From the IMG/VR virus record IMGVR_UViG_3300028048_003227, positions 48,409 to 112,408 of that record: DNA of 64,000 nt, one strand, 5' to 3'. A program made the position numbers and the translations under genes. The stretch comes from a virus (Duplodnaviria > Caudoviricetes). Below are positions 16,003 to 54,419 of this stretch, in pieces; the stretch's first letter is position 1; each line of letters begins with the position of its first letter. Below the pieces are notes generated by a model. The model ran no database searches. It saw nothing but the letters and a program-made list of their open reading frames with translations, and was not told where the DNA came from.

Positions 16003-16209
16003 ATGACTTTTATTTGTAAAGAAGATTTAGTAGAAATGCTTACTAAAGAAATGAATATTGCTCACTCGCTTTCTTATAATAGTGAGGGAATTATAGATAA
16101 TCAGGGCAACTATTTACCAGGTTGTGACTTTCATAGGAGCCTTGCACAAATGGAATACAATACCTTAAAAATTGTTTATGACTTTGTTCAAAATATGAAA
16201 ACAATATGA
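16003..16209 (+). CDS. hypothetical protein
   Basis: ORF. Confidence 0.55.
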   Translation: MTFICKEDLVEMLTKEMNIAHSLSYNSEGIIDNQGNYLPGCDFHRSLAQMEYNTLKIVYDFVQNMKTI

Positions 16210-16640
16210 TTACTGAAGATTACGTCAGTTTTGAAACCGCCAAACTCTTGAAAGAAAAAGGGTTTGATTGGCCGGAATCTCCATTTTATTCAGAGCAAGA
16301 TAGAGATGAGTGGCGGCAGAACAATAGTTACACCGTTCCTAATGAAGAATATAATCCCGAACTTCCTTTTGATTCAGAAACATTGACACTGGTGGCTCCA
16401 CACGTTTCACTTCAAATGGCAATGAAATGGCTGAGAGAAAAACATCATTACAATATTGAGATTGACACCATTGGTCTAAAATACCTCAATACTTTGTCGT
16501 GGAGAAGTGTGATTTATAATCCGGAATATGATATGGAATGCTATTATGAAGACGGTTTTAAGACTTACGAAGAAGCCTGTGAAGCAGCCATTAAGTATTG
16601 TTTAGAGAATTTGGTTTGTGAAAAAGAGATAGAACTATGA
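16206..16640 (+). CDS. paralog family A protein (ITEDYVSFETAKLLKEKGF...YEEACEAAIKYCLENL)
   Basis: 5 copies in window. Confidence 0.8.
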   Translation: MITEDYVSFETAKLLKEKGFDWPESPFYSEQDRDEWRQNNSYTVPNEEYNPELPFDSETLTLVAPHVSLQMAMKWLREKHHYNIEIDTIGLKYLNTLSWRSVIYNPEYDMECYYEDGFKTYEEACEAAIKYCLENLVCEKEIEL

Positions 16641-17235: not shown

Positions 17236-17363
17236 GAATATGTGAAGCAGATGGGATGTGCTACTAGAGAAAATCAAAACGCTAGGCACCTACTTGAAAA
17301 AGTTTGATAGGGAGTTAAGAGAATGTTATTTAGGCTATGTTGGTTCGAATCCAACCATATTCA
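17236..17363 (+). ncRNA. tRNA-like RNA with 60-nt anticodon-loop expansion
   Basis: GAATATG/CATATTC acceptor, agca/tgct D-stem, gttgg-ttcgaat-ccaac T-arm. Confidence 0.65.
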
Positions 17364-17370
17364 CAAGGAA

Positions 17371-17957: not shown

Positions 17958-18111
17958 CGGGATGTAGTTCAGTTGGTAGAATGCCTGGTTTGGTTACAGT
18001 TAACCAATAGCTGAGAAATTGGTGTTCGGATATAATAAAGGAAGATTCATGAGTTCGAATCTCATATATCCGACGACCAGGTGGTCCTCCGTTCGAGTCG
18101 GAGTATCCCGA
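17958..18111 (+). tRNA. tRNA-Pro(UGG) split by 81-nt insert (17994-18074) between positions 36/37
   Basis: joined exons give CCTGG-TTTGGGA-CCAGG with C1-G72, A73. Confidence 0.85.
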
Positions 18112-18149
18112 CTTAATAAATGTCATTTAATATTTTATTATATTTATAT

Positions 18150-19010
18150 ATGATAAATATTTGTAAATATTGTGGCAAAAAATTTGAAACTTCTAACTCA
18201 AAACAAGTTTTCTGCAGTAAAGAGTGTAGTGCAAAATATCAACAACAAAATGCAATAGATAGTGTTAAAAAATATAAAGAGATTCGAATTCAAAAGTATT
18301 ACGAATCTCCAAAGAAATGCAAATATTGCGATTCTATTTTACCGTATGAAGAGAGATCTAAAACATTTTGTAATTCTTCTTGCGCCGCCGCATATAATAA
18401 TTCAAAAAGAATTAGACATTCTTGGAGTGATGAACAGAAAAAGAATTTATCTGAAATAATGATTAATAAACACAAAGATAATTATAATGATAATTCTTCA
18501 AACACCACAACCACACCCAGAAAGAAAATATGTAAGTATTGTGGAAAAGAATTTGTTTCTCATCAATTATCAAGTGGTAAATATTCAAGTTCTAAATTTT
18601 GTTCACATGAATGTAAAAGGTTAAACAATATAGAAGTTGGTAAAAAAGCTATAATCATAAACAAAGAAAAAGGAACGTGGAAGCCTTGGCAAAGTAGAAA
18701 TATTAGTTCTTATCCCGAAAAATTTTTCGAAAAGGTTTTAGATAATAACTTTATATCATATATAAGAGAAAAATACATTGATGGTTATTTTTTAGATTTT
18801 TATATAGAGAAAAACAATAGAGTTATCGATTTGGAAATAGATGGGGATCAACACGAAGAAACACAGGAAAAAGATCGAATAAGAGATGAATATTTAAAAG
18901 ATCAAAATATTGAGGTGTATAGAATTAAATGGAATTCTATTAATTCAAATAAGGGAAAAGAATCTATGAAAAACAAAATAGATGATTTTTTAAGTTTCTA
19001 TAATAAATAA
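18150..19010 (+). CDS. free-standing homing endonuclease (Zn-finger repeats plus Vsr/DUF559-like domain)
   Basis: CxxC...FCSxxC repeats; YFLDF...LEIDGDQH. Confidence 0.8.
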   Translation: MINICKYCGKKFETSNSKQVFCSKECSAKYQQQNAIDSVKKYKEIRIQKYYESPKKCKYCDSILPYEERSKTFCNSSCAAAYNNSKRIRHSWSDEQKKNLSEIMINKHKDNYNDNSSNTTTTPRKKICKYCGKEFVSHQLSSGKYSSSKFCSHECKRLNNIEVGKKAIIINKEKGTWKPWQSRNISSYPEKFFEKVLDNNFISYIREKYIDGYFLDFYIEKNNRVIDLEIDGDQHEETQEKDRIRDEYLKDQNIEVYRIKWNSINSNKGKESMKNKIDDFLSFYNK

Positions 19011-19020
19011 ACTCATATTT

Positions 19021-19712
19021 GGCCTCGTGGTGGAATAGGTAGACACAAGGGACTCGTAAAGCATTGATTTATAATCATTATAATCAATTATGGGTTGCAC
19101 CCTCCGAAAGGAGAGATGTAGAACCTCCCTAATTCGGTGAAAGCTAAGTTTGGATGTACAGGAATGTATCGGATAATCGTCTAAATTAGTTGGTGAATTA
19201 TCAACAGTAGTACATAGTTAACTGATTTTCAGTAATGATAGCAGTCGTTTAGAATCTATGTGTAAGAAGACAGTCCAGATATGCTAATACCGAGCCAATG
19301 TTAAAATTACGAAATAGGTGATGCCGTAGGTGAATAGCTTCAGCCGAAAGTACAACACGCCGACCAACCCCAGCGGGAGTATGTTCGTAACCAATAGACA
19401 GTGTGTAGAGACTATACAGGAGGGACCTAAGTTGAAAGTATAATAATGGCGCGAAATTTAGTTAGTTTGTTAACTGCTAATACCGATTATAGAGATGTAT
19501 ACTCTTCATATCGGTGCTAAAATAAGGTTATTATCTTGCAAGATTTCAATATGGTTAAGAGAGAGTCCAGACCACGAACAATGTTCTCAATAGATTAAAG
19601 AGTTTATTCGCCTACATGGTTCTATTGAATGAAGTTGGTAGCAAAAGCTATAGTGGTACGTAAAATCCCTCGGACAGCAATGTCCGTGCCGGTTCGACTC
19701 CGGCCGGGGCTA
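19021..19712 (+). tRNA. tRNA-Leu(UAA) containing a group I intron
   Basis: exons 19021-19054 and 19661-19712 give AGGGA-CTTAAAA-TCCCT. Confidence 0.88.
19055..19660 (+). mobile_element. group I intron (IC3-like), 606 nt, no ORF
   Basis: 5' exon ends in U, intron ends in G; P/Q/R/S-like AATTCGGTGAAA, AATACCGAGC, GTAGAGACTA, AAGAGAGAGTCC; cctcc/ggagg P3. Confidence 0.88.
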
Positions 19713-19717
19713 CAAAT

Positions 19718-19930: not shown

Positions 19931-19936
19931 ATTTAT

Positions 19937-20029
19937 TACGGATTAGCTCAGAGGTTAGAGCTTAATTGGATGAACCCGAGTTCTTACATAAGGCATCAGT
20001 GGTCGTAGGTTCGAATCCTGCATCCGTAG
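19937..20029 (+). ncRNA. tRNA-like RNA with expanded, branched anticodon domain
   Basis: TACGGAT/ATCCGTA; canonical D and T arms. Confidence 0.65.
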
Positions 20030-20030
20030 C

Positions 20031-20696: not shown

Positions 20697-20771
20697 AGCC
20701 TTGTAAGCTTAATTGGTAGAGTCCTGATCAGAAGGTCGGGGGGGTTAAGAGTTCGAATCTCTTCAAGGCAA
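20697..20771 (+). ncRNA. tRNA-like RNA with 8-nt non-canonical anticodon loop
   Basis: gccttg/caaggc, cctga-tcagaagg-tcggg, canonical T-arm. Confidence 0.55.
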
Positions 20772-22032: not shown

Positions 22033-22192
22033 GGGAGCATAGCTCAGTTGGTTTAGAGCACCTGCCTTAATACAGGGTAATCCACTGTGACGGATTAGCA
22101 AGATGTTAAAAGTGGTGAAGTGCATAATAAGAGTTCGATTCTCTTCATCTTGCCCAAGCAGGGGGTCATTAGTTCGAATCTAATTGTTCCCA
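22033..22192 (+). tRNA. tRNA-Val(UAC) split by 85-nt insert (22070-22154) between positions 35/36
   Basis: joined exons give CCTGC-CTTACAA-GCAGG with Val-type body. Confidence 0.85.
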
Positions 22193-22918: not shown

Positions 22919-23722
22919 ATGGCAAAAGGTGATATATTAAACAAACTAAAAATATCTGGTTACGTCACATCAACAGATCCTTCCGATTGGATAGAAGATG
23001 AGCTTGACATCCAAGAAGGTAGTGGATCATCAGAGTTCCCTGTATTGAATTATGATATTAAAATGGTTATGAATGCTGACAGAGTCCCTATTCTTTCGGA
23101 ATCACATCTCACTGGATCCGCGACAGTTAATCATGAAGGAACTCCTGTTACAGTTAGTTTTGAAGACTTAGTAGATGAATTACAAAGAGTTAAAGCCGAC
23201 TGGGATGCAAACGGTTGGCCTGAACCTATAGGTGACACATTAGTGCATAATGAACACGAAATCAGTTATGATGTAGTTGTTTATGACATACCTGAAGGTT
23301 CCACTCTTTTAAATCAATTATCAAGTTTATACAATGTGACAGTTAGTGATTCAGACACTAATAGAGAAATCCATGTTACTCAACCTCTGGTTCGTTTTAA
23401 TTTTGAGGGGGATCGCCATCATGGAGTCAATGAGAAAGATAGTGCATACTTCACATTTAACGAATGTACGATTGACAAGAAAGGAAATACCCCGGATGGA
23501 TACGCATCAGGTCGAGTTCCTTTATTCCCATATTGTCAGAACCCCGGAGACACTGAGTTAGAGTATGGGTATATAATAATTGATAAAATTTCGGATCTTA
23601 TTGATCAACATCTCGACGAAAATGATGATTTATATTTATTGGTATACAATAATGAGCATGGTGAGAATATAACCCATCCAAGGTCTATAAAGATAGCGCA
23701 TCCAACTCAACCACTTGGTTAA
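22919..23722 (+). CDS. hypothetical acidic protein, possibly virion
   Basis: ORF with its own terminator. Confidence 0.7.
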   Translation: MAKGDILNKLKISGYVTSTDPSDWIEDELDIQEGSGSSEFPVLNYDIKMVMNADRVPILSESHLTGSATVNHEGTPVTVSFEDLVDELQRVKADWDANGWPEPIGDTLVHNEHEISYDVVVYDIPEGSTLLNQLSSLYNVTVSDSDTNREIHVTQPLVRFNFEGDRHHGVNEKDSAYFTFNECTIDKKGNTPDGYASGRVPLFPYCQNPGDTELEYGYIIIDKISDLIDQHLDENDDLYLLVYNNEHGENITHPRSIKIAHPTQPLG

Positions 23723-23775: not shown

Positions 23776-24507
23776 ATGAAAGCACTTAAATTATCAGCGA
23801 TAAGCGACCTACACGGAAACCTACCGTCTCCCGATGTTTTTGCCGAAGGAGATGTTCTTTGTATCTGTGGGGACATTGTGCCTCTCGATCTCCAACAAGA
23901 TTTTGTAAAATCCATCGCGTGGTTCTGTATGAAGTTTATTCCCTGGACTGACAAACTACCATTCAAGAAGGTCATTCTTGTTTTTGGTAATCATGATTTC
24001 TTCTCTGAAGAGCTCGGTCCCCGACATTTTAATTCAGCTGACACAGTAACCAGGATGCTCATGCCCGGTAGTATTAGAGGTGAACATAAGATAGTTATTC
24101 TTATGGATAATTCTTACAAGTACGAGCATTTCACCTTCTATGGAACATCCTGGTGTCCCGATCTCTCCAATTGGGCTTGGTATGGCGATCATGATAAACT
24201 CGTAAGTGAATACGGGAAGATTCCTACTGGAGTCGATGTCCTTCTCACTCACTGTCCACCGAGATTTGGTTATGCAGGCACTGTCATGCAACAAGGGTGG
24301 AACTGGATGAATAATTACGGATGTCAGGAACTTGCAGAAGAGATAGATGTCAAAAGACCAAAATGGGTATTTTGTGGTCACGTTCATAGTGGGGACCATA
24401 AGGTGACAACTATTGATGACAGTATCAATATAGTCAATGTGAGTATGTTGGATGAGAATTATAAAATGAATTATCCTCCGTTTTCAGTGAAAATTGAAAA
24501 ACAATAA
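23776..24507 (+). CDS. calcineurin-like metallophosphoesterase
   Basis: SDLHG, CGDI, GNHD, THCPP, GHVH. Confidence 0.9.
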   Translation: MKALKLSAISDLHGNLPSPDVFAEGDVLCICGDIVPLDLQQDFVKSIAWFCMKFIPWTDKLPFKKVILVFGNHDFFSEELGPRHFNSADTVTRMLMPGSIRGEHKIVILMDNSYKYEHFTFYGTSWCPDLSNWAWYGDHDKLVSEYGKIPTGVDVLLTHCPPRFGYAGTVMQQGWNWMNNYGCQELAEEIDVKRPKWVFCGHVHSGDHKVTTIDDSINIVNVSMLDENYKMNYPPFSVKIEKQ

Positions 24508-25359: not shown

Positions 25360-25743
25360 ATGAATATGATGACAGAAGATTACGTTAGTTTTGAGACTGC
25401 TAAACTCCTTAAAGAAAAGGGGTTTGATGAAAATTGTTCTCGTTCCTATGTCAAAGATAAGTTGACACATAGTCAAGGACGTAACAATTCATACTATACG
25501 ATAATGTATGAAACATATAGACCAATATCAGCACCAACTCTTCAAATGGCAATGAAATGGCTACGGGAAGTACATAATATGCACATTGAAGTTAAATACT
25601 TTTTTGAGCCACACATCTATAAGTACACTATTACTTATACCCCAGTTGCACTTGATAATATTAGTTCACATCCGCAATGTTTCAATACCTATGAAGAAGC
25701 CTGTGATGCAGCCATTAAATATTGTTTAGAAAATTTGATTTAG
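25360..25743 (+). CDS. paralog family A protein
   Basis: conserved N, mid and C motifs. Confidence 0.8.
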   Translation: MNMMTEDYVSFETAKLLKEKGFDENCSRSYVKDKLTHSQGRNNSYYTIMYETYRPISAPTLQMAMKWLREVHNMHIEVKYFFEPHIYKYTITYTPVALDNISSHPQCFNTYEEACDAAIKYCLENLI

Positions 25744-25964: not shown

Positions 25965-26354
25965 ATGATTACTGAGGATTTTGTTTCATTTGAGACCGCT
26001 AAACTCCTGAAAGAAAAGGGATTTGATGTTTGGGGTGATGGTTCATTTGGTGTTGCCACAAAAATTTGGAAAGAGTATAGTCCAAGTGGCATACTTAATG
26101 ATTGTTCAATGTGCTCACCAAGTAGAAAAGCATTTCCTGCTCCAACACTCCAAATGACAATGAAGTGGCTACGGGAAGTACATAATCTTGAAATATATCC
26201 CTATCATAACTACGATAATTCAAAATGGTGGGTTGAAATAATTAAATATCCTAATTCAGTATCAGAATATGAATCCGGAAAGGATGAGGAATTTGATACC
26301 TACGAAGAAGCTTGTGAAGCGGCTATTAAATACTGTCTTGAAAATTTGATTTAG
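25965..26354 (+). CDS. paralog family A protein
   Basis: conserved motifs. Confidence 0.8.
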   Translation: MITEDFVSFETAKLLKEKGFDVWGDGSFGVATKIWKEYSPSGILNDCSMCSPSRKAFPAPTLQMTMKWLREVHNLEIYPYHNYDNSKWWVEIIKYPNSVSEYESGKDEEFDTYEEACEAAIKYCLENLI

Positions 26355-48045: not shown

Positions 48046-49524
48046 ATGACACTCAAAGAACTATTTAAACAATCCGAAGACGGATTCGTAAACTACAGGG
48101 CAACGTTTACGAAGATTGATGCGGTCTTTCCTATAGAAGGGGCGGATCGTCTTGTGAGAGCTGTAGTATGTGGAAGAGATGTGGTGGTTTCAAAAGACCT
48201 CCCTCTTGACAGTACGTATGTTTATATCCCTGTTGAAACAAGTCTTTCTCATAAATATTTGAGTAAGAATAACCTCTATCGTATCTCAAGCGAATCCTAT
48301 CAACTTAATGATAACTTCGAAGAGGTTACTAAAATGCTTAATGAAGGGAAGAGTCTTGGAGATTGTGTGAGTATGGGTGGGTTCTTTGAGAAGAATGGAC
48401 GAGTAAAACAAATAAGGATTCGTGGAGTATATTCACAAGGTTATCTTGCTGATATCCAATCACTTAGAAACGCGTACCCTGTGCTTGATCAATGGATGGT
48501 TGATGAGTTTGAAGAGCTCGATGGGGTGAGTTTTGATGTGATCGGAGATGAGATATTCTGTGAGAAGTACCTTGTTGGTGGTAAGCATCTGGTTGATCCA
48601 CAGGCAGGTGGACAAAAACATTTCCGTCAGCGTTCCAAGAACCTCAAACACGCGCGATTACTCGTTCCGGGGCAGTTCTCTTATCACTATGATACCGCTC
48701 AGTTTGCAGATCATTATAAAGAGTTTAATCCCTCTAATGATGTAAGTATATCTGTGAAGGTACACGGAAGTAGCGGTATATTTGCTAATGTCCTTTGTTA
48801 TAAGCAAGCGGAAGGATGGTTTAAGAAAATTATTTATTCTATCTTTAAACCCAAAGAATACAGGCTTCTCTATGCCTCTCGCACAAAGATACGCAATGAG
48901 CGAGTTTATGACACTCCAAAAGAATCTAAGTTTTTCTATGGAAGTGATATCTGGGCTCCTGTTCGCGACCTACTCGCAGGACATATAGATAAAGGGATGA
49001 TCGTGTATGGAGAGATATGTGGATATGTTGAAGGAACCACGAAGATGATTCAGAAAGGTCATGACTATGGATGTGCACCAGGTCGATGGAAGTTCATGCC
49101 TTATAGGATTGTTAATGTGGATAGAGGAGGGAGAAGGACCGAATGGAACTTAAGAGATGTGGTGAAGTGGACGGACGATCTTCGTCAGCATCTCGCTATT
49201 GAACACCGATATGAAGGAGTGGATAAGATTATGCCTTGTCCCATTCTCTACGACGGACCGCTTGGAGATCTCTATCCTGATCTCAGTAAAGATGACGCTA
49301 GTTGGAACTTAGGACTTCTCGAAAGGATGAAGAGTGACAAGGAGAGATTTGGAATGGAGTTGCAGGAACCCCTATGTAAGATGAAAGCGCCTCGTGAAGG
49401 ACTTGTTATAAGAATTAATAACGACCCCGTTCCTCGAGCATGGAAGCTCAAGACCGCAGCTCACTACGACCTCGAGCGTAAGAGTCACGATAGTGGGGAG
49501 AGAGATATAGAAGAAGAATCTTAA
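48046..49524 (+). CDS. ATP-dependent RNA ligase, Rnl2/DRB0094-like
   Basis: PIEGAD N-domain; KVHG, YGEI, EGLVIR, KLK motifs. Confidence 0.85.
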   Translation: MTLKELFKQSEDGFVNYRATFTKIDAVFPIEGADRLVRAVVCGRDVVVSKDLPLDSTYVYIPVETSLSHKYLSKNNLYRISSESYQLNDNFEEVTKMLNEGKSLGDCVSMGGFFEKNGRVKQIRIRGVYSQGYLADIQSLRNAYPVLDQWMVDEFEELDGVSFDVIGDEIFCEKYLVGGKHLVDPQAGGQKHFRQRSKNLKHARLLVPGQFSYHYDTAQFADHYKEFNPSNDVSISVKVHGSSGIFANVLCYKQAEGWFKKIIYSIFKPKEYRLLYASRTKIRNERVYDTPKESKFFYGSDIWAPVRDLLAGHIDKGMIVYGEICGYVEGTTKMIQKGHDYGCAPGRWKFMPYRIVNVDRGGRRTEWNLRDVVKWTDDLRQHLAIEHRYEGVDKIMPCPILYDGPLGDLYPDLSKDDASWNLGLLERMKSDKERFGMELQEPLCKMKAPREGLVIRINNDPVPRAWKLKTAAHYDLERKSHDSGERDIEEES

Positions 49525-49526
49525 TA

Positions 49527-49730
49527 TTAAGATTCTTCTATATCTTCTGATGGAACTGTAATTTCTATAGCTTTTTCTATATCTTCCGACGGAACTGTAA
49601 CTCCTATATATCTATATATCTTTGCGAGATCCACAGTATCTGCATGCTCAAGTATAGTAGCGGCGGGAAGAGTACTTGTTATTAAGCCCAAACTTTTAAG
49701 TTCGTTGATTTGTTCAGCTGTAAGTTTCAT
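49527..49730 (-). CDS. small hypothetical protein with duplicated TVPSEDIE
   Basis: ORF with AT-rich upstream region. Confidence 0.55.
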   Translation of the reverse strand: MKLTAEQINELKSLGLITSTLPAATILEHADTVDLAKIYRYIGVTVPSEDIEKAIEITVPSEDIEES

Positions 49731-49782
49731 TGTTTTCGTATTGCATTTATAAAAATAATAAGTGAATTTAGTATTTTAATTC

Positions 49783-50676
49783 ATGATTAAGATAAACTCT
49801 GAATTGCCTATTACACTTCTCGATAAGTATAATGAGAAGCTTAATGATTTTGATTTTGTATTATTTCACCTTTATGTAAGTGAGCCTGAATACAAGAAGT
49901 ATTTTGATGGAATGAGAGAGAGTTATCCTGAGAGACGGATGATTCTTGATAATTCTGCATATGAGTTCTTTGTGAAAGGTGAGGAACTTGATTTAGACGA
50001 ATACGCAAAAACAATCATTGAACTCAATCCAGATTATTATATTCTCCCGGATACTCTTATGGATAAGGAAAAGACTATTCAAGATGTGTTGAGGTTTGAA
50101 AAGAATCAAAGGAGAGAAATTGAGGAATACTTTAAAAATATTGACGAAGGAGCACCTCAACCAATCGCAGTAGTACAAGGAAATACGGTTGATGAATTTA
50201 ATAGATGTTTGTTCATTCTTTTGAACATGGGATATACAAATATTGCTATTCCATTTCATAATACATTTCTTAAAGATGAGATAGTTGAATGTGATGGTGA
50301 TATGGCATGCGAATTTGCTTCAGCTGGGTACAAGGAATGCACAGAAGATGTAAGGTATGCGATGGGTAGGTGTATGTGGGTGAAACATTATGGGCTTAAT
50401 ATTCTTTCTCCAGATGGTAAGCCGCGATATAATCTACTTCATTTTCTCGGAAGTCATTGTCCGGCCGAGAAGAAGTATTTGAATACATTTTTTTCTCCAT
50501 CTAGCAACGTTAGTATGGATACTGGATATCCTGTTAAACTTGCTATTGAAGGAGAGGTGCTTGGGGTAGAGAAAGAGAAACCAAAAACAATTATTGATGA
50601 TTTTATGCATGATGAGTTTTCCCCAGAGAAACAAAAACTTATTGAAGACAATATAAATACATTTAAAAATTATTAA
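49783..50676 (+). CDS. TGT-fold protein, candidate DpdA-like guanine transglycosylase
   Basis: ILDNSAY, PD, AVVQG, HFLG, SMDT pattern; QueC nearby. Confidence 0.55.
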   Translation: MIKINSELPITLLDKYNEKLNDFDFVLFHLYVSEPEYKKYFDGMRESYPERRMILDNSAYEFFVKGEELDLDEYAKTIIELNPDYYILPDTLMDKEKTIQDVLRFEKNQRREIEEYFKNIDEGAPQPIAVVQGNTVDEFNRCLFILLNMGYTNIAIPFHNTFLKDEIVECDGDMACEFASAGYKECTEDVRYAMGRCMWVKHYGLNILSPDGKPRYNLLHFLGSHCPAEKKYLNTFFSPSSNVSMDTGYPVKLAIEGEVLGVEKEKPKTIIDDFMHDEFSPEKQKLIEDNINTFKNY

Positions 50677-51707
50677 TGAAGTATATAACAGTTCTTATAA
50701 CAGACACTCATTTTGGTACACATAATAATTCCATGACGTGGCTGAGGTCCCAAAAGGAGTTTTTCGATAAACAAGTTATACCACATTTAAAAGAACTTAA
50801 AAACTCTGAGTATAGTATTCGCCTTATTCATTGTGGAGATGTGTTTGATAGTCGATCAACCATTAATTCATATGTGGCTACCCAGGTGGTTAAGTTATTT
50901 GACCAAATGTGTGATGTTGTTGATAAATTATTGATAGTTAATGGTAATCATGATTTTTACCAGCCATCAGATGATTCAGTAGACACAGTAACACTTATAT
51001 TCAAACAACTACAACTGATTCATAAAGATAAGTTGGATATAATTTCAGATAAGAAAGTTCTTGGTGGATGGGGAAATGAAGTGAGTCTTTATGTACCGTG
51101 GTACGAATGGATCAAGCATGATGACTTGATTGAATATCTTGAAAATTATAAAGAAGGACATGATAAACCAATCACTCACCTCTTCACACACGCGGATATT
51201 GTTAGGGATAAATACGAATTAGACATACCAAATATTATATCAGGACACATCCATACTCCTATGTTTGTTGATAATCTAAAAAATCTTGGAAGTGTGTTTG
51301 CCTTGACCTTCGCTGATTGTAACTCTGCAAGAGGATTTTATGAGTACGAAGATGGTGGTGAGTTGAAGTTTATAGAGAATAAGTATAGTATAAGGTTTTG
51401 GAGATTTTACGACGACGATATATTTAAGATTTCAGATGATCTCCAAAAAGACGATTACATAGAGATATATCTTAGTAAAGCTAATATATCAAAAAAGAAA
51501 TATGTTGACAGGTGGAGTGAGTTGGCAAAAGAATATAAGAATATTTGGAGATATCCAAAGATTGAAGATGATGATGGGAGTGGGAGGATAAATGCTAAAC
51601 AGTTTGAAGGATATAATATTGAAACAATGACAGAAAGTCTTATTCCTGATGAACTAAAAGATAAATTTGAGAAGGTAAAACAATATATTAATACAAATAA
51701 AGATTAA
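50676..51707 (+). CDS. gp47/SbcD/Mre11-like recombination nuclease
   Basis: DTHFG, CGDVFD, GNHD, SGHIH. Confidence 0.85.
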   Translation: MKYITVLITDTHFGTHNNSMTWLRSQKEFFDKQVIPHLKELKNSEYSIRLIHCGDVFDSRSTINSYVATQVVKLFDQMCDVVDKLLIVNGNHDFYQPSDDSVDTVTLIFKQLQLIHKDKLDIISDKKVLGGWGNEVSLYVPWYEWIKHDDLIEYLENYKEGHDKPITHLFTHADIVRDKYELDIPNIISGHIHTPMFVDNLKNLGSVFALTFADCNSARGFYEYEDGGELKFIENKYSIRFWRFYDDDIFKISDDLQKDDYIEIYLSKANISKKKYVDRWSELAKEYKNIWRYPKIEDDDGSGRINAKQFEGYNIETMTESLIPDELKDKFEKVKQYINTNKD

Positions 51708-51717
51708 AAAAGATCTC

Positions 51718-53013
51718 TTAAATGAGATCTTTTATTGTATTTATTACATCTTCTAATTTAATTGAAAACACTTCCACCCAATTAAGATTATGTTCTTTAG
51801 CCCATTGACGTTTCATAGGATCGCGAAATGTCCATGTTTCTATACAATTTTCATATAATTTAGTATTTTTCCTTTCCCATTTTAATAAAGTTTTAATATC
51901 ATCTTCATTATTTGGATTAAACGGATGTCCGCCATGCCCCCAATATCCTTGTATTTCGAGATAAAGATTTTTATTAGGGAAGTAAAAGTCACACACAAAT
52001 GGATATATATTACTTCTATATTGATATTTATAATTTATACCATTATCATCCAACCATTTTTTAAAATCTTTTTCTATTTGTGATGAAGAAAAAGATTTAT
52101 TTTTCTTTTTTGTATTATAATTTTTCACTTTATATTCATCTGTTTGTGCATAATGTTTCACTCCATATTTATCTAACATTGTTTGTTCCGCTTTATCTTG
52201 AAACTTTTTTAATTTAGACGCATATTTCACTCCATATTTATCTAACATTGTTTGTTCCGCTTTATCTTTAAATTCTTTTATTCGTAGTGCTTTCTCCTCC
52301 CCATATTTATCTAACATTGTTTGTTTCGCTTTGTTTTGAAATTCATCACTTAAAAAAACATTTTCAACTCCATATCTATCTAAATTAGTTTGTTTAATTT
52401 TTTCTTTAATGGAATCGATATGCATTGGATTATCCTCTCCATATTTATCTAACATTGTTTGTTTAATTTTTCCCTGTATATCTTTAGACGCAAATGGATT
52501 TTCAACCCCATATTTTTTAAGATTAGTTTGTTTCACTTTTTCCTGTATGACTGGATTATGAACCGTACATGTACATCCATATCTATCTAAATTAGTTTGT
52601 TTGGTTTTCTTTTTTATCTGATCAGATTGAGACGCATATTCTGCACCATACTTTTTAATATTTGTCTTTTTAATTTTTCCCTGTATATCTTTAGACGCAA
52701 ATGGATTTTCAACCCCATATTTTTTAAGATTAGTTTGCTTGGTTTTATCTGATACTTTTTTAGATAAACCCTTGCATTGTCTACTACATGTAATTGCATA
52801 ACCAGTCATGATCCCTTTATAAGGTAAACGTTTTCCGCAAACATCACACACTGGGTAATCATTGATATTATTATAAAACCAATATAATTTTTCAGACCAC
52901 GTTATATCTTCTGGATATTTTAATAATTTTAAATATAGATTATGATAATTTTCGTCTAAATAATTTTCAATGTTTTTTCTTTTAAAAAATTCTTTAATGT
53001 CTGGATTTTTCAC
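51718..53013 (-). CDS. homing endonuclease with KQT..KYG repeats
   Basis: about 10 repeats; CDFY...LEIQGYWGHG nuclease domain. Confidence 0.75.
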   Translation of the reverse strand: MKNPDIKEFFKRKNIENYLDENYHNLYLKLLKYPEDITWSEKLYWFYNNINDYPVCDVCGKRLPYKGIMTGYAITCSRQCKGLSKKVSDKTKQTNLKKYGVENPFASKDIQGKIKKTNIKKYGAEYASQSDQIKKKTKQTNLDRYGCTCTVHNPVIQEKVKQTNLKKYGVENPFASKDIQGKIKQTMLDKYGEDNPMHIDSIKEKIKQTNLDRYGVENVFLSDEFQNKAKQTMLDKYGEEKALRIKEFKDKAEQTMLDKYGVKYASKLKKFQDKAEQTMLDKYGVKHYAQTDEYKVKNYNTKKKNKSFSSSQIEKDFKKWLDDNGINYKYQYRSNIYPFVCDFYFPNKNLYLEIQGYWGHGGHPFNPNNEDDIKTLLKWERKNTKLYENCIETWTFRDPMKRQWAKEHNLNWVEVFSIKLEDVINTIKDLI

Positions 53014-53078
53014 ATGATAATATTTATTTAAACATTATTTTTAATATATTTAATCATTGATAAAATAATAAAATAAAA

Positions 53079-53660
53079 ATGAGGTATATTTTAACTGGAA
53101 CACAGGGAACCGGAAAATCAACACTACTGCATCATTTTGATGATAAAATGACTGTTGTAACAGAGGTTGTGAGGAATCTTGCAAAGACGGATGGTATTGC
53201 TGTTAATGAAAATGGCAATATGGAGGGTCAGACAAAAATTTTCAATACATATTATAATATTCTTTCAAATACTCCTGGACCATATATTTCCGATCGGGGT
53301 CTTACTGATGTCATTGCATATACTGTTTATAACATGAGCAGACTAATAAGTGAAGGGAGAATTAGTCAGGAGGAAGGACAGAGGTTTATTGAAGAACAAA
53401 TAAATCGTTTTATTGATTTCTCTGATAAGAATGAAGATGTTGTTTATTTCTATGTGCCGATTGAGTTTGACGTGGTGGACGATGGTTTCAGGAGTACTAA
53501 TGAGGAGTTCCGTAGGGAGATAGATAATAATATTAGTGAGTTGTTTGAATATATGGAAGGCCTCCATATGGGATTGAATGTATTTACGTTGAGAGGATCT
53601 GTAGAAGAGAGACTTGATACGATGGAAGAGATTATGAAAAATTACGGTGATATAAATTAA
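53079..53660 (+). CDS. P-loop NTPase / nucleotide kinase (NadR/AAA_28-like)
   Basis: GTQGTGKST, ISDRG, DDGFR. Confidence 0.75.
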   Translation: MRYILTGTQGTGKSTLLHHFDDKMTVVTEVVRNLAKTDGIAVNENGNMEGQTKIFNTYYNILSNTPGPYISDRGLTDVIAYTVYNMSRLISEGRISQEEGQRFIEEQINRFIDFSDKNEDVVYFYVPIEFDVVDDGFRSTNEEFRREIDNNISELFEYMEGLHMGLNVFTLRGSVEERLDTMEEIMKNYGDIN

Positions 53661-53672
53661 AAAAGTAAAATT

Positions 53673-54419
53673 ATGAGTGAATTTAAAGCAAACAAAGTAG
53701 TACTGAGTTGTTCGGGAGGGCTGGATTCCAGCTGCCTTTTACTTAAACTCCTTGCAGAAGGCAAAGAGGTGAGGTGTTATAGTTTTGATTATGGTCAGAA
53801 GCATAGGATTGAACTTGAGAAGATCAAGAAGAATATTGCTTTCCTACAGAGTAAGGGTCTTCCTGTTACTCACCAGATAGTAGATATGACCGGTGTGTTC
53901 TCAGGAAACACAAGTTCTCTTGTGGCCAGCACAGGTAAGGATATTCCACATGGTCATTATGCCGCAGAGAATATGAAGAGTACCGTGGTGCCTTTGAGAA
54001 ATGTATTGTTCAGTGCAGTGGTGTTCAGCAAGGCAATTAACTGGGCTGTAGAGAGTGGAGAAAATGTTATTATCAGTCTTGGTATACATGCGGGAGACCA
54101 TACTATCTATCCTGATTGTCGTCCAGAGAGCCGTGAGGCCTGCGAACATGCGTTTAAGGTCTCTGATTGGAATGCCGATAAGGTTGCTTACGAGGCGCCG
54201 TTTGTGAATATCGATAAGGGTGAGGTTCTTGCCGAAGGACTCCGTGCAATGAAGGCTCTTGGTTGGAGTGATGAGGATAGGGATGAGTTCCTTCGTAATA
54301 CTCATACTTGTTACGATCCGGATCCGGAAGGAAGGAGCTGTGGTAAGTGTGGTAGCTGCACCGAGAGACTTGAAGCATTTGAGAAGAATGGATTAAAAGA
54401 CCCGATTGAATATCAGTAA
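53673..54419 (+). CDS. queC: 7-cyano-7-deazaguanine synthase
   Basis: SGGLDS, YGQKH, VPLRN, YPDCR, TCY...CGKCGSC. Confidence 0.93.
   Translation: MSEFKANKVVLSCSGGLDSSCLLLKLLAEGKEVRCYSFDYGQKHRIELEKIKKNIAFLQSKGLPVTHQIVDMTGVFSGNTSSLVASTGKDIPHGHYAAENMKSTVVPLRNVLFSAVVFSKAINWAVESGENVIISLGIHAGDHTIYPDCRPESREACEHAFKVSDWNADKVAYEAPFVNIDKGEVLAEGLRAMKALGWSDEDRDEFLRNTHTCYDPDPEGRSCGKCGSCTERLEAFEKNGLKDPIEYQ

Follow-up and report, generated by a model that had tools for sequence, protein, structure and literature searches.

A putative mobile intron with a tRNA-like minihelix in the anticodon loop of a phage tRNA-Val(UAC) gene

The stretch of DNA analysed here (64,000 nucleotides; the window) forms part of a 112-kb phage contig with 35% GC and standard-code ORFs, seen mostly in bovine gut or rumen samples and 69% complete. 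A cluster of tRNA genes spans 17.2-22.9 kb of the window, and within it a tRNA-Val(UAC) gene (22033-22192) is split by an 85-nt insert (22070-22154) lying between A35 and C36. Removal of the insert gives a 75-nt tRNA with the anticodon loop CUUACAA, which bears out the preliminary description of this locus, where the insert had been placed within the UA|C of the anticodon. The Rfam tRNA model scores 53.7 bits over the complete gene, with the insert as a single gap. ARAGORN did not call the tRNA-Val gene in bacterial mode; in intron mode it reported an 85-nt intron placed one base off, and miscalled the tRNA as Gly(ccc). A one-base slip at both junctions would produce a UAA anticodon, as had been correctly pointed out. 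The predicted spliced junction (22069|22155), in which the exon 1 end ...GAGCACCTGCCTTA is followed by exon 2 CAAGCAGGGGGTCATTAG, is phage-specific, and intron-less tRNA-Val homologues in rumen-sample DNA contigs read CCTTA and then CAAGCAGGGG. In public RNA runs, for which assembled contigs only were covered, the matches were mostly tRNAs of other organisms with no phage-specific spliced junction, a result that has no bearing on splicing. An exact search for the Val 5' exon in IMG/VR gave no match, and no intron-less gene for Val or Pro is present elsewhere in the 112-kb contig.

The 14 ordinary tRNA genes of the phage (17371-22851) all encode N73-C74 and none encodes CCA, many of them continuing with CAAA. 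The host must therefore use endonucleolytic 3' processing and CCA addition for these tRNAs, and the C74 encoded in all 14 is matched by the invariant C at the end of the intron (Table 1).

Table 1. Features of the split tRNA-Val gene and its intron, with two further loci of the window.
Feature	Positions	Strand	Description and evidence
tRNA-Val(UAC) 5' exon	22033-22069	+	Positions 1-35, end ...CCUGC CUUA; Rfam tRNA; exon structure and compensatory changes relative to two orthologues
85-nt intron	22070-22154	+	N1-U2-A3 ... 13-nt helix strand and C; family model R3, 69 bits, E 4.5e-12
5' module (H-type pseudoknot)	22070-22097	+	N1 = A22070; both stems covary, 10 variants
Knot stem S1	22071-22075 with 22085-22089	+	UACAG with CUGUG
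Knot stem S2	22078-22083 with 22092-22097	+	UAAUCC with GGAUUA
Knot loops	within 22070-22097	+	L1 = GG, L3 = (G)AC
P2, 5' strand	22098-22105	+	Acceptor-like 8-bp stem; 8/8 paired; double changes at all 8 pairs in relatives
Linker (23 nt)	22106-22128	+	D-loop-like GG 22114-22115; by alignment near-identical to the linker of the tRNA-Arg(UCU) intron of L128
T-arm mimic	22129-22145	+	5-bp stem, loop UUCGAUU, G53:C61-like closing pair (AAGAG-TTCGATT-CTCTT)
P2, 3' strand, and terminal C	22146-22154	+	Strand 22146-22153, then invariant C 22154 (C74-equivalent); 3' splice site after 22154; 20/20 introns
tRNA-Val 3' exon	22155-22192	+	C36 to A73, start CAA-GCAGG; C74 at 22193
Sibling tRNA-Pro(UGG)	17958-18112	+	C1:G72, A73, G37; 81-nt intron of the same family, 17994-18074, position 36/37; R3 82.6 bits
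Rnl-type ATP-dependent RNA ligase	48046-49524	+	Candidate sealing enzyme; PF09414 32.3 bits (cut-off 27); PHROG 968 'RNA ligase' E 7e-36

The insert opens with a pseudoknot, which puts 28 nt between the 5' splice site and the tRNA-like stem downstream. The inner element (22099-22153) scores 21.4 bits on the Rfam tRNA model, under the gathering score of 29 bits, and has no full cloverleaf, the D and anticodon arms being replaced by the 23-nt linker. Single-sequence folding of the insert (z = -1.3) is not decisive; the comparative evidence is. Most of the elements first noted by eye are confirmed by it. The TAATCC/GGATTA hairpin is present as stem S2, the complementarity between TACAG and the loop CTGTG is real and covaries (TACAG/CTG to TACGG/CCG), and the 8-bp stem with its T-arm is a genuine, selected tRNA-like module in which the stem pairs are compensated. 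Two details proposed with them do not hold. The letters C-C-A are indeed found across the 3' junction (22154-22156), but as a chance feature of the Val copy: only the first C is invariant in the 20 introns described below, and the two bases that follow it are exon bases that vary (CA, AC, TA, GA, AA, TC, TT, GT). Similarly, the supposed His-like G-1:C73 is the eighth stem pair, which is kept as a pair while its identity varies (G:C, U:A, A:U, C:G, U.G) and so constitutes no His-identity mark; a tRNA-His-like end, with conserved G-1:C73 and CCA, is thus absent, the C alone being conserved.

The insert had been treated as a one-off, yet its family is already in the literature, under the name 'enigmatic introns' of Lak phages. 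A covariance model, together with pattern scans of IMG/VR and metagenome contigs and with the Lak-A1 genome, brought to light 20 distinct introns that share one build, in about 10 kinds of phage tRNA from rumen and gut phages, metagenome contigs and Lak-A1; the tRNAs include Val, Pro, Arg(UCU), Phe, Tyr, Asn, Thr and Glu, and a Gly tRNA comes in addition from Devoto et al. The covariance model (R3) combines five rumen/IMG-VR introns with the Lak-A1 Phe intron. The Pro sibling, which has the same order of parts as the Val insert and orthologues in L128 and L155, was missed by a single-sequence model (R1). The first pattern scan, TACAG...GAGTTCGAWTCTC, matched mostly ordinary tRNAs, and a search with the linker AAAGTGGTGAAGYGCAT found L128 as sole true member, the other 19 loci being coincidences in coding sequence.

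All 20 introns obey one boundary rule. Each begins with N-U-A and a 5' hairpin or pseudoknot, with U2-A3 invariant and U2 opening the hairpin S1, and each ends with a 7-nt T-like loop followed by exactly 13 helix-strand nucleotides and one unpaired C, after which the 3' exon starts. The 13 nucleotides comprise 5 of the T-stem and 8 of the outer stem, or 4 and 9 in two members, so that the conserved quantity is the total. The spacing between the 5' splice site and the stem varies (26-44 nt, with 26-32 nt in 10 of the 11 tabulated members), and the linker GG is found in all 11. Excision by the rule always leaves a 7-nt anticodon loop with U33 and an anticodon consistent with the tRNA body: the Pro bodies have C1:G72, A73 and G37 after excision, and the Tyr body has a long variable arm. 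Across the family the insertion sites are 34/35, 35/36 or 36/37. The family plan, a 5' hairpin or H-type pseudoknot opening with N-U-A and then a tRNA-like minihelix ending in an unpaired C, is well supported. The sequence comparisons likewise support well the view that the window insert is an intron in the anticodon loop of a probably functional phage tRNA-Val(UAC), and that it represents an apparently mobile family of structured phage tRNA introns of 75-115 nt.

The strongest test of the rule comes from orthologous genes. The tRNA-Val orthologues L172 (phage G002) and L205 carry family introns at 34/35, one nucleotide 5' of the 35/36 site in the window, and all three genes are predicted to yield the same loop, CUUACAA, when the rule is applied. 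The acceptor, anticodon and T stems of the three genes differ by compensatory changes, which indicates that the exons are selected as tRNA. A close homologue of the Val intron resides in the tRNA-Arg(UCU) gene of another phage (L128), with the linker near-unchanged and the stems compensated; this argues that the insert itself is selected and moves between tRNAs. The ORF at 22919-23722, for which relatives were sought as a guide to syntenic loci, has none and belongs to no Pfam or PHROG family.

Pairing within the minihelix is also maintained well beyond chance. A perfect 8-bp stem directly behind a T-arm is expected at ∼2.6% of window positions, as against 10 of the 11 relatives found first. 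Among six aligned members, compensatory double changes occur at 8/8 stem pairs and 4/5 T-stem pairs, with 98% of cells paired compared with 59% in shuffles (0/500) and at most 47% in slid controls, figures for which the Infernal fit leans towards the model. For the knot stems, 10 variants gave a covariation score of 0.41 against 0.16 for shuffled sequences (none of 500 reached it), MAFFT having misregistered three rows by one column. Because MAFFT alignments of whole introns or of minihelix parts are not structural, Infernal-fitted alignments and scripts were used instead. S1 (C-R-G with C-Y-G) switches from CAG/CUG to CGG/CCG, and S2 has at least five covarying versions, while the Lak members and one Tyr intron have S1 alone, as a plain hairpin. 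A six-layer S1 would leave a connecting loop of a single nucleotide and so cannot form together with S2; either the knot has an S1 of 3-4 bp, or S1 and S2 alternate. A 6+6 pseudoknot acting as a 12-bp acceptor mimic was ruled out sterically, as one nucleotide cannot cross a 6-bp stem. The knot N-UACAG..CUGUGAC..GRAU is identical in 13 metagenome contigs, inside different tRNAs, and its sequence conservation exceeds the needs of pairing, which would also fit a role in binding a dedicated protein or in catalysis.

Introns of this kind were reported from Lak megaphages by Devoto et al. 2019 (PMC6784885, Fig. 4, Table S6) as 'enigmatic' tRNA introns of 79-114 nt, located in the anticodon loop and of no Rfam class, that 'may encode a tRNA', and a 2026 study of alternatively coded jumbo phages (PMC13037316) repeats that the introns 'could encode another tRNA'. 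The earlier paper also describes natural intron-less alleles in Lak populations, with an excision point 'offset by one' from the tRNAscan call, an offset that is expected for Thr(UGU) under the boundary rule. The introns in the Phe, 'Tyr' and Thr tRNAs of Lak-A1 were found again here by model or by coordinates and correspond to 'no hit in rfam' entries of Table S6, and the rule holds for the published Phe, 'Tyr', Gly and Thr introns of Lak phages. On Lak-A1, R3 gives 45.4 bits for the Phe intron, a training member, and detects the Asn/'Tyr' intron, which was not in training, weakly (23.6 bits, E 0.07); the shared boundary rule links the window intron to the Lak members more strongly than the R3 score does. 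The window intron and the Lak introns are both anticodon-loop inserts of ∼80-115 nt whose removal gives a normal tRNA, and both hold a tRNA-like element (acceptor-like stem and T-arm) of no Rfam class, with near-complete arms in the inner element of the Lak Thr intron only. They differ in the 5' module, where the Lak introns have a hairpin and a AAAUUAAA spacer and the introns of the window phage a true H-type pseudoknot, and the window phage, with its 112-kb contig, 35% GC and standard-code ORFs, does not belong to the Lak phages. Neither paper contains the boundary rule, the ruler, the covariation or a mechanism, and a literature search found no paper proposing a mechanism for removal of these introns.

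Some related elements depart from the plan. The Lak intron at L008:1488-1580 (Lak-A1 500041-500133), published within a tRNA-Tyr(GTA), lies by the rule in a tRNA-Asn(GUU); the variable loop of the body is short, and a metagenome orthologue, L202, permits GUU only. In Lak-type phages (L007, minus strand, 1478-1571 of the reverse complement, from Lak-A1; and L096:2814-2910) a TTACAG hairpin with a T-arm minihelix lies outside any tRNA, directly downstream of a tRNA 3' end, and resembles a free-standing copy of the module. A tRNA-Trp(CCA) at L141:2836-2955 (minus strand; also in L158) has a 46-nt intron with the UACAG/CUGUGA knot and no minihelix. Conversely, the introns at L030:2989-3126 and L030:9601-9743 (phage G006) have a minihelix and no 5' knot; they start with the first base of a 7-bp acceptor-like stem and end after A-CAA (7 bp + A + CAA), a different 3' rule. 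The knot-only and minihelix-only introns imply that both modules are able to act separately, and that one enzyme scheme may not fit all. A second, unrelated type of small intron, with a hairpin ATTCTT/AGAAT and then GRACAGCRA, occurs in two tRNAs of a 363-kb phage (L141:4134-4262 and L141:5526-5649, minus strand).

The intron was also compared with other known classes. Archaeal and eukaryal BHB introns, likewise in the anticodon loop and removed by protein-dependent cleavage and ligation, are the closest functional analogy, and differ from the window intron in that the latter has no BHB, no EndA gene, other positions and a tRNA mimic of its own inside. Group I introns of tRNA anticodon loops, for example in tRNA-Leu(UAA), are mobile and occupy a similar site (33/34 to 36/37), whereas the window intron is 85 nt long, compared with 200 nt or more, and has no Rfam match to a group I or group II core. 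The same phage has a group I intron (RF00028, 25.3 bits, E 2.7e-4, below gathering) in the gene at 19021-19713, so that two kinds of intron coexist. This gene encodes a type-II tRNA that is Leu(UAA)-like after excision (CU|...G|UAAAA) of an intron of ∼605 nt, and in three rumen metatranscriptome runs the stretch is covered very deeply, with many variant joints. Modules with an acceptor-like stem on a T-arm recruit RNase P and RNase Z. Minihelix substrates of these enzymes and viral tRNA-like structures (TYMV TLS, mascRNA-type) share this arrangement, with an elbow and an adjoining pseudoknot; the window module differs from the TYMV TLS and mascRNA-type structures in being nested in a tRNA anticodon loop, in its 13-bp rather than 12-bp stack, and in an excision that requires exon ligation. 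The intron has the geometry of an RNase Z or RNase P substrate, with an elbow, a 13-bp stack, an unpaired C and no CCA.

The boundaries are defined by the intron itself, with a 3' ruler anchored on the T-loop and a 5' site anchored on the hairpin or knot, and the phage encodes an RNA ligase. We infer from these features that an RNase Z-type enzyme cuts after the C, that another, structure-guided cut falls before N1, and that the ligase seals the exons. Judged on sequence comparison, the reading that this is a protein-spliced, mobile 'tRNA-within-tRNA' intron, cut at its 3' end by a ruler of the tRNA 3'-end type and at its 5' end by way of the knot, has in our estimate a probability of about one half. 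There would be no self-splicing. The inner tRNA mimic would present an elbow (T-loop and GG) and a 13-bp coaxial stack to an RNase Z-type 3'-end endonuclease, which would cut at a fixed distance, T-loop plus 13 nt plus C. The 5' cut, the weakest step of the scheme, would fall one nucleotide upstream of the hairpin or knot and be made by a second structure-guided endonuclease, perhaps RNase P recognising the hairpin as a small acceptor-stem mimic, or an enzyme of the RNase E/G/Y type. The anticodon stem would keep the exons together while an RNA ligase, for which the Rnl-type protein is the candidate, seals the break in the loop, and two metallophosphoesterases (23776-24507 and 50676-51707) could heal the ends. 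As the intron, not the tRNA, would specify both cuts, the element could sit at 34/35, 35/36 or 36/37 and move between tRNAs. Against this scheme, the knot would remain on the 5' exon if RNase P acted canonically on the minihelix, and the stack is of 13 bp and not the canonical 12. A cut by RNase Z after the C presupposes the 'first unpaired nucleotide' behaviour of the enzyme.

The candidate ligase has an N-terminal OB domain and a nucleotidyltransferase domain with the motif I KVHG, and an orthologue in the related phage G002. PF09414 proteins are also found in Lak-A1, G004 and G005, with RtcB instead in G008. Phage RNA ligases are common for tRNA repair, and for this reason the presence of the gene is weak evidence for splicing. 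Neither PF13671 nor PF09511 was matched; these are weak negatives, given that the PF09511 controls were silent and that a first-look PF09414 search of the window's genome missed the ligase later found by hmmscan. The region 48046-54419 may hold an RNA repair set, comprising the ligase, a Metallophos protein (50676-51707) and an AAA_28 P-loop protein (53079-53660), with QueC adjoining at 53673-54419.

The conservation of the knot could instead reflect a small ribozyme, self-cleaving or self-splicing, of a class not yet described. It would release the 5' exon at the upstream edge of the knot, with healing and sealing of the ends left to phage phosphoesterase, kinase and ligase or to host RtcB. 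We regard this as rather unlikely. Such a ribozyme would account for a 5' cut set by the knot rather than the tRNA, for the 20/20 U2-A3 and the identical knots of the 13 contigs, conserved in sequence as well as pairing, and for the knot-only intron of L141, and the Metallophos and AAA_28 genes near the ligase are candidates for end healing. However, the intron alone matched no Rfam ribozyme model at E up to 10, hammerhead, HDV-like/theta, twister, pistol and hatchet included (the small-ribozyme models were also negative on 7.5 kb at E ≤ 1), its topology lacks the P3/P4 of HDV-like ribozymes, and 28 nt is very small for an active site. Replacement of the knot by a plain hairpin in the Lak members argues in the same direction, and the ruler of 13 nt plus C at the 3' site would be left unexplained.

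An improbable alternative is that the insert is never spliced and that the knot and minihelix, with the tRNA body as their scaffold, are displayed as a stable non-coding RNA or decoy. Between the Val and Arg copies, conservation is greater in the linker than in the stems, so the insert is itself under selection, as a scaffolded RNA would be. Against this, the flanks rebuild a perfect 7-nt loop with a body-fitting anticodon in 20/20 cases, the one-base shift of the insert among the Val orthologues keeps the mature loop, the cluster has no Val or Pro genes other than the split ones, and intron-less alleles exist in Lak populations. Still less credible is that the tRNA gene is decaying after a mobile DNA element derived from a tRNA inserted into it and inactivated it: the insert does resemble a truncated tRNA and ARAGORN in bacterial mode makes no call, but the exons are intact and covary across three phages, sequence inspection revealed no target-site duplications or terminal inverted repeats at the Val insert, and the helices of the insert are kept by compensatory change. 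Cleavage of a BHB by EndA with joining by RtcB, suggested by the anticodon-loop location and by excised ends that would adjoin, is the least probable reading and is largely refuted, as inspection of 22060-22165 gave no 4-bp helix flanked by two 3-nt bulges at the junctions, EndA (PF01974) is absent from five phage records (the window contig, G002, G004, G005 and Lak-A1) with archaeal controls positive, G008 alone has RtcB among the eight intron-bearing phage records searched for it, and the sites are 34/35 to 36/37 and not 37/38.

To our knowledge, the only tRNA introns known in bacterial-type systems are self-splicing. We suggest tentatively, as a bolder and more doubtful extension of the protein-spliced reading, that these introns could represent a third bacterial or phage route of tRNA splicing, in which the tRNA mimic of the intron lets end-processing nucleases excise it, an RNA-repair ligase rejoins the exons and the element, which defines its own cuts, hops from one tRNA's anticodon loop to another's. 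The Val intron, its Pro sibling and their 18 relatives provide a precise, testable anatomy, consisting of the boundary rule, the ruler of 13 nt plus C, the 5' knot, mobility and a co-encoded ligase, and the question of removal can now be approached with the transcript, RNase P and RNase Z and the phage ligase. The rule also corrects the annotation of phage tRNAs, in which ARAGORN and tRNAscan misplace the junctions and hence the anticodon, as with Gly instead of Val in the window and Tyr instead of Asn in Lak. A protein-spliced cassette of 80 nt could also serve as an engineering part.

Finally, the surroundings of the tRNA cluster have several features of their own. No remnant of a homing endonuclease was found adjoining the Val gene. 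An HNH + DUF559 (Vsr-like) endonuclease gene (18120-19010) starts 8 nt after the intron-bearing tRNA-Pro gene, has orthologues at the same place in L128 (6239-7096) and L155 (6038-6889), and is 68% identical in DNA to Lak phages in its 3' part. It resembles a free-standing homing endonuclease that may accompany the intron or favour its selection. Three more unusual tRNA-like genes lie at 17236-17366, 19934-20030 and 20697-20771; they comprise a 130-nt RNA that combines an 8-bp acceptor-like stem with a T-arm, a tRNA with ∼21 extra nucleotides in the anticodon arm, and a weak tRNA match (32 bits) missed by ARAGORN. The cluster is flanked by three PHROG 12005 paralogues (16206-16640, 25360-25743 and 25965-26354).
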